From: Octopus vulgaris | Lineage: Eukaryota | Length of the DNA: 64,000 nucleotides | Assembly (NCBI GenBank): GCA_951406725.2 | Contig: OX597822.1 | Span: 83,080,001 to 83,144,000, forward strand | Direction: 5' to 3' | Shown here: in pieces, positions 3,461-61,175 of the stretch | How the letters are laid out: each line of letters opens with the position of its first letter | Numbering within the stretch: the first letter of the stretch is position 1 | The notes under the pieces: model-generated | What the model saw: only the letters and a program-made list of their open reading frames with translations | Told to the model about the DNA's origin: nothing | Databases searched by the model: none | Program-made: the position numbers and the translations under genes

Positions 3461-3643
3461 ACATATTTTTAATAACATCTTTACTCAGCTCCACATGGTT
3501 TAAAGTTTCGTGTGTGTGTACGACGCAGCAGTCTCATCAGATATCAGAAGACTCTTCTCATATCTGATGAGATTGATGTGTCCTACGCACCTATGAACCT
3601 TGAAGTCATACGACGCTGAGTAAAACTATTATTAAAAATATGT
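3461..3643. repeat. Old fold-back element (~88-bp arms) with decayed hammerhead motifs in both arms
   Basis: ACATATTTTTAATAA..TTACTCAGC..TCTCATCAGATAT is the reverse complement of ATATCTGATGAGA..GCTGAGTAAA..TTATTAAAAATATGT. Right arm reads TAT-CTGATGA...GAACC-TTGAA-GTC-ATA. Confidence 0.6.
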
Positions 3644-3817
3644 AATTCTTACCAAATATTTTGGGTGACACTTTCTTTCGTTTGTCCACTCACTCGTACA
3701 CACACACACACACACACAAGCGCACGCTTCAGCATACACACACACAAACCACGCCACCTCAAACACAAACCACACCACACAACACACACACACCACACTA
3801 CACACATACACCACACA

Positions 3818-4187
3818 CGCCCAATGGTTAGGGTAGCGGACTTGCGGTCGTAGTATCGCGGTTTCAATTCCCAGACCGGGCGTTGTGAGTGTTTATAGAG
3901 CGAAGACACCTAAAGCTCCACGAGACTCCAGCAGGGGGTGGTAGCGAAACTTGCTGTACTTTTTCACTACAACTTTTTCTAACTCTTTCTCCCTGTTTCT
4001 GTTGTAACTGTATTTCAAAAGGCCAGCCTTGTCACACTCTGTGTCATGCTGAATCTCCCCGAGAACTACGTTAAGGGTACACGTGTCTGTGGAGTGCTCA
4101 GCCACTTGCACGTTAATTTCACAAGCAGGCTGTTCCTTTGATCGGATCAACTGGAACCGTCGTCGTCGTAACCGACGGAGTGCCACG
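3818..4187 (+). mobile_element. tRNA-derived SINE, family 'C'
   Basis: TGGTTAGGGTAGCGGACTTGCGGTCGTAG..GGTTTCAATTCCC tRNA-like head, tail CGTCGTCGTAACCGACGGAGTGC. Copies at 44009, 47366 and 49271. Confidence 0.8.
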
Positions 4188-58620: not shown

Positions 58621-59374
58621 TTTTCAGAATGCGATAAAAAAACCAAGGCTGTGAAGATTTTAGAACATTTATAAATAGGTCTTACAGCTGTTTCCGGGAT
58701 ATTTATTATATTCCTTCATCGGAGACGGTGTGAGAAAATGGTTAAGCAATAGTTAATTTAGATAAGATAGGAAATAGAGAGTGGAGTGGAGGAATGAAAA
58801 TAGATGTGAGATATGCAGAGATATTGCATTTGTAGATCCATTATTTAGGCAGAATGGTATACATATAAGATTCCAATCCCTTATGAGTAAAATCCAATAG
58901 TATCTAAAATTGGTCATTACAAGTATAAAGTTTGTATACAGTGCTATTGAATCAAGGTTTTATTTAAAGTGACCTAAAGGTAGAGAATGTATTTGTAAGG
59001 TCAAATCGAAAACAGGTCTCTTTAAATAAAACCTTTGATTCAATAACACTGTGTATAAACTCTATACTTGGAATGACCAATTTTAAATACTATTGGATTT
59101 TACTCACAAGGTATTGGAGTCTTATATGTATTCCATTCTGCCTAAATAATGGATCTACAAATGCAACAGTTCTGCATATCTCACATCTATTTTCGTTCCT
59201 CCACCTTACTCTCTACTTCGTATCTTATATCAATTAACTATTGCTTAACCATTTTCTCACACCGACTCTGATGAAGGGATATATAATAAATATCCTGGAA
59301 ACAGCTGTAAGACCTTCTATCTATAAATGTTCTAAAGTCTTCACAGCCTTGGTTTTTTTATCTCATTCTGAAAA
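58621..59374. mobile_element. Palindromic PLE-like element (~355-bp arms) with an outward-facing hammerhead in each arm
   Basis: 58621-58975 versus 59014-59374 are diverged reverse complements. HHRs at 58679-58726 (-) and 59264-59313 (+). Confidence 0.85.
59264..59313 (+). ncRNA. Type I hammerhead ribozyme (partner copy at 58679-58726, minus strand)
   Basis: GACT-CTGATGA-AGGGATAT-ATAATAA-ATATCCTG-GAAAC-AGCT-GTA-AGAC. The partner has a perfect GTCT/AGAC stem I but a CCGATGA core. Confidence 0.75.
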
Positions 59375-59555
59375 TAAATTTATATATATATATATATATA
59401 TATAAATATAATAAATACACACACACACACATATATATATACACATATATATATATATATATACACACATATACAAATATATATATATATATATATATAT
59501 ATATATATATATATATATATATATATATATATATATATATATATATATATATATA

Positions 59556-61175
59556 TATATTTGTAAAAAATGAAGTTCGAAAATGCTGCTGTATTATACA
59601 ATTTTTAATTTTTATATATACATTATAACATGTTTCAGTTCCAAAAATGAACCTTATCAAAAAAAGTTATATATAAAAAAAGACAGCTCATGCCGTCAAA
59701 CACAAGAAATTCATTTATAATACACAACGGAGTCAGACATCTTAGAGTTCATGTATAGTTGATATATAGTTCATGTATAGTTGATATATAGTTTGAAGTA
59801 TATGTTCAAAGTGTTCGATGCAGTGGCCCACGGTGGCGATACGTATTCAATACAAAAAACAGATCAAAGTGGTGGAAAGCGGTCAATACAGAAGATTGAT
59901 GTTTCCGAAAGAGCGAGGAATTCATTTTTACCTTAAGCAATTGTGATGACCCATGGTGGAAGTTCGCTGGGTGGTTCTAGTGAGTTTTTGTGAAATGCTC
60001 GGTTTTATAATGCCTGTTAGGTGGTCAATCTAGCGTAGCGTGACGTCATCAATGTTTTGACCAAAAGATAAGTCCTCCGAAAGGGAGAAGCGGGGTTCCA
60101 CCACGGCCGCTGCTTCAAACAGACACTCACGCTGACGGAAATATGCCTTAGTAAAAAAGGAAAAAAATTATTTCGTGCAAATCTGACCCTGATACATACG
60201 ATACAGCTAAGGGTCAGACCCGATTCTGATTGGTCAACAAGTTGATGACGTCTAGCTCTGCTAGAATGGACAGGATACAAACAGGGGACAGTCATTAGTC
60301 AGAATATTGATGACGCCCTTTTCTGCTTGAATAGTCACCTAACAAGTACAGACAGGGGGCAGATCTAATGTAGCTATAAGTCGTGATTGGGCAGAATCTG
60401 GATGACGTCCCGCTCTGCTTGACTAACGAAGCGACTGGTCAAAACAGGAAACAAACAAGAGGCAGATATAATGCAGCGATTGGTCAAAATAATGATGACG
60501 TCCCGTTCTACTTGACTAACGAAGCGACTGGTCAAAACAGGAAACAAACAAGAGGGAGTTATAATGCAGCGATTGGTCAAAATAATGATGACGTCCCGTT
60601 CTACTTGATTAAAGCCACCTAACGAAACGATTGGTCAAAACATTGATGACGTCACGCTACGCTAGATTGACCACCTAACAGGCATTATAAAACCGAGCAT
60701 TTCACAAAAACTCACTAGAACCACCCAGCGAACTTCCACCATGGGTCATCACAATTGCTTAAGGTAAAAATGAATTCCTCGCTCTTTCGGAAACATCAAT
60801 CTTCTGTATTGACCGCTTTCCACCACTTTGATCTGTTTTTTGTATTGAATACGTATCGCCACCGTGGGCCACTGCATCGAACACTTTGAACATATACTTC
60901 AAACTATATATCAACTATACATGAACTATATATCAGCTATACATGAACTCTAAGATGTCTGACTCCGTTGTGTATTATAAATGAATTTCTTGTGTTTGAC
61001 GGCATGAGCTGTCTTTTTTAATATATAACTTTTTTTGATAAGGTTCATTTCAGGAACTGAAACATGTTATAATGTATATATAAAAATTAAAAATTGTATA
61101 ATACAGCAGCATTTTCGAACTTCATTTTTTACAAATATATACCTACTCGTATACGAGCTAATCCTATTATAAATA
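59556..61175. mobile_element. Palindromic element (~505-bp near-identical arms, ~565-bp spacer) in (TA)n
   Basis: 59556-60064 is the reverse complement of 60631-61140, with a short 3' extension to ~61175. Confidence 0.85.
60228..60690 (+). promoter_or_regulatory. Putative promoter array: repeated CCAAT-box plus CRE-like modules, then a TATA-like box
   Basis: ATTGG-N12-TGACGTC-like modules at ~60229, 60294, 60386, 60479, 60572 and 60630 (93-bp period for three of them), then TTATAAAA at ~60675. Function is inferred from motifs only. Confidence 0.45.

Follow-up and report, generated by a model that had tools for sequence, protein, structure and literature searches.

Genomes of animals rich in Penelope-like elements (PLEs) contain large numbers of minimal type I hammerhead ribozymes. 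Between 2,000 and 9,000 PLE hammerheads per genome have been described (Cervera and De la Pena, 2014, PMC4209133), and a coral genome holds more than 6,000 hammerheads in 16 families (PMC7229834). Single motifs of the published PLE type were reported to be inactive (PMC4209133), and one such ribozyme requires the PLE protein (PMC11167929). A bias for (TA)n, tails, inversions and the Hydra motifs have been described for the clades relevant here (PMC8557442); Hydra-1_Obim from Octopus bimaculoides prefers (TA)n (PMC8557442 and its supplement), and both AT-rich cutting and protein-assisted cleavage have been reported for a PLE (PMC11167929). The available portions of a paper on the repeats of Octopus vulgaris do not mention ribozymes (PMC13282606). 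Here we analyze hammerhead motifs in a 64,000-nt stretch of the O. vulgaris genome, hereafter the window (contig OX597822.1, 83,080,001-83,144,000, listed by us as G000:C9:83080001-83144000). The assembly comprises 2.8 Gb in 227 contigs; the DNA is AT-rich and simple repeats are abundant.

The window is very probably a pile-up of repeat 3' ends from about ten families. Five of these are Penelope-like, each family has its own type I hammerhead, and most lie in (TA)n that is likely targeted by the element's endonuclease. What we observed as the basis of this reading is the motif itself, membership in dispersed families, linkage to GIY-YIG endonuclease frames in families A, B, C, G, and H, tandems of pseudo-long terminal repeats (pLTRs), inverted 5' copies, tails, and (TA)n at both junctions. 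The motif zoo is real, lies well above chance and is of a known kind, namely PLE pLTR hammerheads in (TA)n. As such it matches the expectation from published work for an animal genome rich in PLEs; the by-product that matters is a set of variant catalytic cores.

Hammerhead motifs and repeat families in the window

We used a strict type I descriptor modelled on PMC4209133, which demands at least three of four stem I pairs, CUGANGA or UUGANAA, stem II, GAAA, a palindromic insert, and UH, and which allows an extra base after A9. An earlier version without this extra base gave only one strict match and was replaced. The strict descriptor found seven perfect-core matches in the window (13499+, 31806-, 33121-, 55150+, 59268+, 59660-, and 61035+), all of them having an insert of at least 4 nt that is palindromic or nearly so. 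Shuffled sequences (200 made in blocks of 200 bp, 100 in blocks of 1 kb, and 100 over the whole window) contained on average 0.05-0.07 matches of this class; none of the 400 reached seven, and the reversed window gave none. The comparison with a shuffled background that the preliminary description of this DNA had called for thus shows a clear excess. With one mismatch allowed, the window yielded 23 matches versus 12-14 in shuffles, and 4 of 400 shuffles reached 23. About half of these relaxed matches are due to chance, so on their own they prove little. No hammerhead appeared among the 150 matches listed of 287 in an Rfam scan of the window, which were mostly microRNA models on TA repeats.

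Hammerhead-like motifs are present in the letters at all 16 places named in the preliminary description, which had overlooked three more (59660-, 3540-, and 7473-). Its sorting into intact and decayed motifs needs correction for 61035, 14724, 58679, 40888, and 53617: 61035 is the known U3-A8 covariant, whereas 14724 and 58679 carry U4C, and 40888 and 53617 A6U, at the level of their families. The motif at 12635 has an intact core, yet a private change at the closing pair of stem II, and 59264 has a private stem I mismatch, the majority core of its family A being CCGATGA (19/35).

Searches in the octopus genome itself, in which the best 40 candidates per query were taken and which are thus biased toward the query, revealed dispersed repeat families with a conserved motif for 15 of the 16 listed places. 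Queries were 59264/58679 for family A, 14724 for B, 52118 for the older B subfamily B0, 40888/53617 for C, 12635/13494 for D, 31747 for E, 33078 for F, 55146 for G, 61035 for H, 34443/41783 for I, and 3561 for K; 41783 was placed because it matches family I loci, and 53617 because it matches 40888. The remaining motif, 30050 (J), found only itself (one match among 18 candidates, E 1e-12), and one relative with an intact core (82% over 50 nt) lies in a locus collected for another family. If the related B, C, and J are counted together, next to A, D, E, F, G, H, I, and K, there are nine unrelated groups among the listed motifs, in line with the earlier estimate of at least eight families. Identity among family matches is 98-100% in D, 81-87% in F, 99% in H, and 69-78% in I. 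Relaxed matches across all collected loci cluster into 24 recurring groups, a few of which are chance matches inside repeats.

The canonical or the U3-A8 core is the family majority in D (CTGATGA, 39/39), E (canonical, 19/19), F (canonical, 26/35), G (canonical, 26/29), H (TTGATAA, 28/28), I (canonical, 7/13), K, and B0. In young B, in A (CCGATGA as above; CTGATGA, 8/35), and in C (CTGTGGA, 23/28) the standard core is not the majority, which makes these motifs hammerhead-derived variants. Stems I and II and the palindromic stem III are present in the motifs folded; one mismatch occurs in the first four stem I pairs of young B, H, K, and the 59268 copy, and stem II is weak in I. An origin of the motifs by chance, in a window so rich in AT and repeats, would suit the relaxed matches and 30050, but the strict palindromic matches, the family motifs conserved in 15 of 16 cases, and the position just before family 3' ends refute it for all except 30050, and we give this explanation next to no chance.

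At the left of the window, an old head-to-head pair of PLE-like 3' ends of family K (3461..3702, both strands) continues into (CA)n and carries decayed hammerheads at 3564-3607 (+, GAAC for GAAA) and ~3491-3540 (-). A decayed hammerhead of a further family lies at 7397..7473 (-, GGAA for GAAA), with a partial inverted partner at 7579-7702. Family D forms a young inverted insertion (12448..13800, 97%) made of a 562-bp monomer repeat with a right-hand tail and (TA)n on both sides; its hammerheads occupy 12640-12689 (-) and 13499-13548 (+). The J motif (30054..30081, +) is a decayed minimal hammerhead with G8A and the weakest of the 16. The hammerhead of family E (31751..31806, -) has an intact core and a ACGATCGT stem III, and is part of a short inverted insertion flanked by (TA)n tracts; that of family F (33083..33121, -) combines an intact core with a 12-nt palindrome. 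The old family I is represented by 34448..34481 (+), with a private A6G decay, and by a second, decayed copy at 41788..41821 (+).

The family C hammerhead at 40893..40920 (-) has the A6U core CTGTGGA, private stem II changes, and its 3' end in (TA)n, and the core of the second copy (53621..53648, -) is decayed further. The B0 hammerhead (52122..52148, +) carries a private C3U, the family core being canonical (CTGACGA or CTGATGA). At 55150..55219 (+) lies the hammerhead of family G, with an intact core and a ACATATGT stem III, at a Hydra-type PLE's 3' end, ~36 nt before the start of (TA)n. The inverted insertion of family A (58621..59374, 87%), likewise the 3' end of a Hydra-type PLE, bears hammerheads at 58683-58722 (-, with the family-majority U4C) and 59268-59309 (+, CTGATGA, with the private stem I mismatch). 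Finally, the 3' region of a second Neptune-like PLE, family H, forms a young inverted insertion with a short tail (59561..61175), and its hammerheads at 59627-59660 (-) and 61035-61068 (+) share the U3-A8 covariant core TTGATAA.

To place the window in the genome, we sampled 80 evenly spaced 10-kb stretches (800 kb, one shifted by hand). This sample contains 29 strict matches (2.3 per 64 kb), or 14 with an insert of at least 4 nt (1.1 per 64 kb), versus seven in the window (bootstrap P for seven or more ~0.014); the window has 1.45 times as many (TA)n tracts per kb. Motifs of the same kind occur throughout the genome, so the window, though dense in them, is not special in kind. The B/C clade, with 24 copies in 0.8 Mb, extrapolates to ~84,000 copies per genome (54,000-125,000). 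We considered young B as the most abundant family and rejected this, as the sample holds no copy of the young B subfamily.

Carrier elements and their (TA)n sites

Five families (A, B, C, G, and H) are joined to GIY-YIG endonuclease frames of the Neptune and Hydra types. In B, C, and H a single frame combines reverse transcriptase (RT) with a GIY-YIG endonuclease (EN) at its C terminus, and in G and A the C-terminal part only was found. For family B, 20 collected stretches (L061-L080) define a full-length unit of ~6.2 kb with RT plus GIY-YIG frames of 883-1009 aa, in the order frame, CA-rich 3' region, hammerhead, and then the next unit or (TA)n. The hammerhead is present in both pLTRs, and tandem arrays were seen. 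The window copy (14631..18270, -, between two (TA)n tracts) is a 5'-truncated, Neptune-type member of this family, consisting of the end of the RT-EN frame, a 2.9-kb CA-rich 3' region, the hammerhead, and the 3' end. Its C-terminal linker (CX4CxxC) and GIY-YIG endonuclease (17631..18221, -) are 96% identical to the frame of the full-length copy L071, and they matched with 95-100% identity at no fewer than 150 places, many of them in frames of 880-1010 aa. The distance from the EN stop to the hammerhead is 2.88 kb, equal to that in L071, and the minimal hammerhead (14728..14754, -; listed as 14724), with the U4C core CCGACGA, an ACGT stem III, and one stem I mismatch, is identical in kind to that of full-length B copies. 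The long degenerate CA-rich tract (15000-17630 in the window, and in L061-L080) belongs to this element and yields long spurious His/Thr-rich frames. As the tract is copied with the element, this PLE spreads CA-rich low-complexity DNA.

In family C, the hammerhead lies 0.5-0.9 kb behind a frame related to that of B (63-67% identical) and is found in both pLTRs. The C endonuclease of L315 showed 100% identity in 138 of the 150 matches listed, and frames of the C lineage reach 882-1024 aa. The family H hammerhead follows, at 0.9 kb, a third, Neptune-like frame with RT and C-terminal GIY-YIG. The translations show the Neptune signs, a CX2-5CxxC linker and a cysteine pair between GIY and YIG. Family G has its hammerhead downstream of an endonuclease with Hydra-clade signs (in the L380 translation, a CxCX5C linker, no CCHH, and CxxC and CxH next to E and N), and family A downstream of a broken relative of the G endonuclease. 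Tandem pLTRs, inverted 5' copies, and tails of 30-40 bp were all observed, as in EN-bearing PLEs. Four H-related PLE frames (L283, L303, L313, and L341) are each followed by a hammerhead with a core of the U3-A8 type (4/4), which suggests a clade-wide covariation.

Family D is a tandem, non-coding 562-bp monomer with a tail and one type I hammerhead per monomer, of which up to three units were seen; judged from its sequence, it appears to be a retrozyme-like tandem repeat. In another locus (L299:5900-8550), seven hammerhead-like motifs with the A6C core CTGCCGA occur in ~490-bp tandem repeats on both strands, likewise retrozyme-like. A Pfam scan of 30 frames from family loci linked none to a family by Pfam alone. 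Two candidate links were rejected: in L125, another repeat and (TA)n intervene between family E and a PLE frame upstream of it, and in L283 the GIY-YIG frame is part of another element. The suggested PLE/retrozyme ecosystem is supported by the five families on PLE frames and by the retrozyme-like D. The idea that ribozyme modules themselves colonize simple sequence repeats (SSRs) is not supported, as the motifs ride on PLE 3' ends, for which the published targeting candidate is the element's endonuclease.

The association with (TA)n was measured on the unbiased 800-kb sample, where 22 of 23 B/C copies have (TA)4+ within 300 nt, at distances fixed within each family and nearly all of them 90-115 nt past the motif; random positions have (TA)4+ within this distance in 21% and a tract starting at 80-140 nt in 6% of cases. 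Among family loci, (TA)n lies near the motif in 28/32 (A), 27/40 (D), 24/24 (E), 18/27 (F), and 28/28 (G), the counts for A and G being biased because their queries contained some TA; for B loci it is 33/46, internal pLTRs included. All 32 family H ends pass into TA, directly or after a tail. At the other end, the 5' truncations of family B abut (TA)n in 18 of 23 cases (30 loci, the other 7 running past the locus edge). Together, these distances uphold (TA)n as the landing context. Most motifs are indeed bounded by TA or CA repeats, as had been noted, with the exception of the 3' ends of 52118, 34443, and 30050. The junctions of B and C tandems contain few TA bases only, so the long (TA)n tract is not copied from the element RNA. 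Insertion into (TA)n is therefore supported, and we infer from the sequences that the tract was probably there before.

In the mechanism we propose, the RT-EN protein would nick AT-rich DNA, and reverse transcription would be primed on the element RNA just past the hammerhead, the tandem junction having a short TTATA-type target match. Because reverse transcription would usually stop early, the hammerhead-bearing end would accumulate. The hammerhead's site of action would be the tandem RNA of the element itself, in which two copies could pair via the palindromic stem III of the family, probably with help from the element's protein, and lone or inverted copies would be inert. Folding agrees with the earlier proposal of a palindromic stem III that needs a dimer: the stem III hairpin is predicted to be unstable in 12 of 13 folded motifs, and all 13 self-pair as duplexes. 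The palindromes differ between most families, which makes mixed dimers unlikely. Only 33078 (family F), with its intact core, has a stem III predicted to be stable as a monomer (-1.8 kcal/mol).

Two other explanations of the locus concern what the motifs do and where the (TA)n comes from. Independent retrozyme modules that spread themselves and regulate host transcripts by cutting pre-mRNA would fit the 562-bp tandem repeat of D with its intact core, the tandem hammerhead repeats of ~490 bp (L299) and ~360 bp (L359), and the predicted monomer fold of 33078. We regard this as very improbable: five families are PLE ends, a stable monomer stem III is missing in 12 of the 13 folded motifs, long duplexes would arise from inverted pairs, and according to a preprint retrozymes are depleted from Xenopus introns (bioRxiv 2026.07.22.740005). 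Moreover, no host protein domain was found by Pfam in 82 frames of the non-repeat parts of the window, where short exons could escape; the only two matches were pieces of a DDE transposase. Cutting of pre-mRNA is thus unsupported, because no host gene was found in the window, and the claim that any host pre-mRNA spanning the region could be cut is further weakened because the four inverted same-family pairs (K, D, A, and H) lie on opposite strands and cannot dimerize in one transcript, whereas the same-strand pairs are both decayed (I) or A6U and decayed (C). For 33078 alone such cutting is conceivable. A second alternative, that the insertion itself makes or greatly lengthens (TA)n by slippage or repair where a short TA is nicked, the elements thereby seeding microsatellites instead of landing in them, could start from the short TA-rich end at tandem junctions, which might prime slippage. 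We consider it unlikely, since (TA)n also flanks the randomly placed 5' truncations, unrelated families stack within the same (TA)n tracts, and a (TA)n preference is on record for these clades (PMC8557442).

Host coding frames do occur near hammerheads elsewhere: an ankyrin plus SOCS box frame (L007:27-971, +) and a thrombospondin plus immunoglobulin frame (L143:5-1057, -) have family A and F hammerheads no more than 0.7 kb away, on the opposite strand, in these two cases only. Parts of the B hammerhead and frame are present in assembled contigs of four sequencing runs presumed to be RNA, which carry no information on ends, level, or strand. Of the 32 contig pieces shown, none bridges the predicted B cut site; neither observation was used as evidence.

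The window contains further repeats. Non-LTR retrotransposon frames at 24344-27546 (-) and 28301-29353 (+) (RVT_1 E 3e-23, zf-RVT) lie within (TTA)n tracts and are a second SSR-associated class of elements. We take these frames to resemble Dong/R4. Recent activity of Dong-R4 has been described in O. vulgaris (PMC13282606). A truncated 5S rRNA-like piece at 19532-19634 (+; 50 bits versus an Rfam gathering score of 38) directly follows (TA)n and continues into a dispersed repeat, as a pseudogene or a 5S-derived short interspersed element (SINE). At 21903-22507, the 184-bp unit of a common SINE-like dispersed repeat forms 3.3 tandem copies. The two DDE_3 transposase fragments lie at 46149-46394 (+) and 53008-53256 (+).

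Variant catalytic cores in the B and C lineages

In the 24 sampled B/C copies, U occupies position 6 in all 13 C copies, and the 11 B copies divide into 5 with U4C and 6 with the canonical core; descriptors demanding CUGANGA would miss 18 of the 24. Among young B copies with intact frames, CCGACGA is found in 33 of 35 distinct hammerheads, together with the stem I mismatch, and the two others are both pLTRs of L067. In the C lineage, all 11 hammerheads from 8 loci, four of them chosen for frames of 882-1024 aa, have CTGTTGA (A6U), and in C copies gathered by the downstream part only, U6 is present in 57/62 and A6 in 1/62. U4C is also the majority in the Hydra family A and in one further family. 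Other U4C hammerheads were noted in a 360-bp tandem pair (L359:7738 and 8098, -), in a single copy at L076:7774 (-), and at L248:1890 (-) in a dispersed family with a CCGACGA majority. CpG decay was rejected as the origin of U4C, which creates rather than removes a CpG; the reverse of U4C may explain the canonical core at 59268.

We examined constraint by comparing subfamilies clustered on their flanks (three in C, with 14 copies unclustered; 20 of 70 copies unclustered in B). Between C subfamilies, none of the 30 core and stem sites varies, against variation at both free sites (N7 and H17; 2/2) and in the flanks at 17 of 79 sites (Fisher p 0.003). B subfamilies differ at 3 of 30 core and stem sites (U4C and two stem I sites) versus 34 of 80 in the flanks. 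The core change fixed in two young, intact Neptune lineages is predicted to weaken or stop self-cutting. The most likely reading of the B/C variants, to which we give about an even chance, is that they are ribozymes of reduced, protein-dependent activity or folds that selection still maintains, as opposed to products of neutral decay. Going further, we tentatively suggest that non-canonical cores dominate the commonest clade, that two recent Neptune lineages may independently have fixed A6U or U4C with the rest of the fold under selection, the ribozyme being tuned down or turned to a non-catalytic use in dimerization or protein binding, and that A6U would be an undescribed natural core. No report of U4C or A6U in PLE hammerheads was found in the literature searched, nor any of A6U as a natural hammerhead core; Lunse et al. 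(2016) may already contain these variants, and the novelty of the fixed changes in young PLE lineages is provisional.

A rival explanation holds that the A6U cores, and U4C with the stem I mismatch, no longer cleave and that the fold is kept for a non-catalytic role such as RNA dimerization or RT-EN binding. All single mutants of the CUGA turn scored low in a deep scan (PMC9901934), A6C is slow at <0.1 per min (PMC3088659), catalytic mutants of an anole PLE left its insertion in vitro unchanged (PMC11167929), Naiads spread without canonical hammerheads (PMC8557442), and the core changes sit in young lineages with intact frames. Yet in C subfamilies H17 is only U, A, or C (G in 0/62) and N7 takes all four bases, as expected of a cleaving hammerhead; U4C, although less active in vitro, sustains a viroid in vivo (PMC3088659), and its being the majority in three unrelated families fits a tolerated change. 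Loss of cleavage is therefore conceivable but, on this balance, somewhat doubtful. Whether PLE hammerheads need to cleave matters more widely: their function has been called unclear (PMC8557442), and in vitro catalysis was dispensable, while cleavage needed protein (PMC11167929). Within the B/C clade, the canonical version occurs beside U4C, U4C with a stem mismatch, and A6U, and as the last two sit in near-identical copies with intact frames, the need for cleavage is directly testable.

Several points weigh against reading the window as a pile-up of PLE ends with own hammerheads. Pfam support for family B is below the curated cut-off (RVT_1 E 0.0012; GIY-YIG E 0.012), and the Pfam scan gave none for the family G frame. 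In flanks of 1.5 kb, a link to a PLE frame was found for none of D, E, F, I, J, K, and the 7473 family, and a PLE origin of these is argued from motif type, inversions, and tails. The (TA)n association is weak in families I (2/10) and K (2/7), and the presence of (TA)n before insertion is deduced from occupied sites. Hammerhead cleavage itself is a prediction, and the constraint test involves three subfamilies, an invariant loop II (0/4), and fast-changing pyrimidine runs in the flanks.

Comparison with known hammerheads and PLE clades

The octopus motifs share with the minimal PLE hammerheads of Cervera and De la Pena (2014, PMC4209133) the type I topology, the extra base after A9, a short stem I, an absent or palindromic stem III, the U3-A8 covariant, opposite-strand pairs, and many unrelated families per genome, mostly as lone 5'-truncated copies. 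They differ in that several families have longer palindromes (8-12 nt) and a long domain II, and in their U4C and A6U cores, which are absent from those representatives of Figure S3 in that paper that were compared, the published descriptor having demanded the core. Families B, C, and H resemble the Neptune clade (Craig et al., 2021, PMC8557442) in the single RT-EN frame, the CX4CxxC linker, two cysteines between GIY and YIG, pLTR tandems, and the microsatellite bias; the 6.2-kb unit of B with its 2.9-kb CA-rich untranslated part is unlike them. The assignment to Neptune is made by motifs rather than by a tree and is best seen as putative, Nematis having the same linker.

Family G, and A by its similarity to G, agree with Hydra-clade PLEs including Hydra-1_Obim (PMC8557442) in the CxCX5C linker, (TA)n insertion, and the hammerhead, and G also in lacking a cysteine pair between GIY and YIG and in having CxxC and CxH around E and N; this likeness is to the description of the clade, not to the Hydra-1_Obim sequence, and the U4C majority core of A sets it apart. 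Family D shares tandem non-coding monomers, one type I hammerhead in each, and low G+C with non-LTR retrozymes (PMC7229834; bioRxiv 2026.07.22.740005), but its monomer is 562 bp long, compared with typically ~300 bp, it shows the tail and inversion signs of PLEs, and it is known from DNA alone. The variant cores affect the same uridine-turn positions as the natural variants U4C (viroid) and A6C (phage Bcep176), which have reduced yet detectable activity (Perreault et al., 2011, PMC3088659). Those, however, are rare single cases with tertiary contacts, whereas in the octopus the changes are fixed in families, at roughly tens of thousands of copies.

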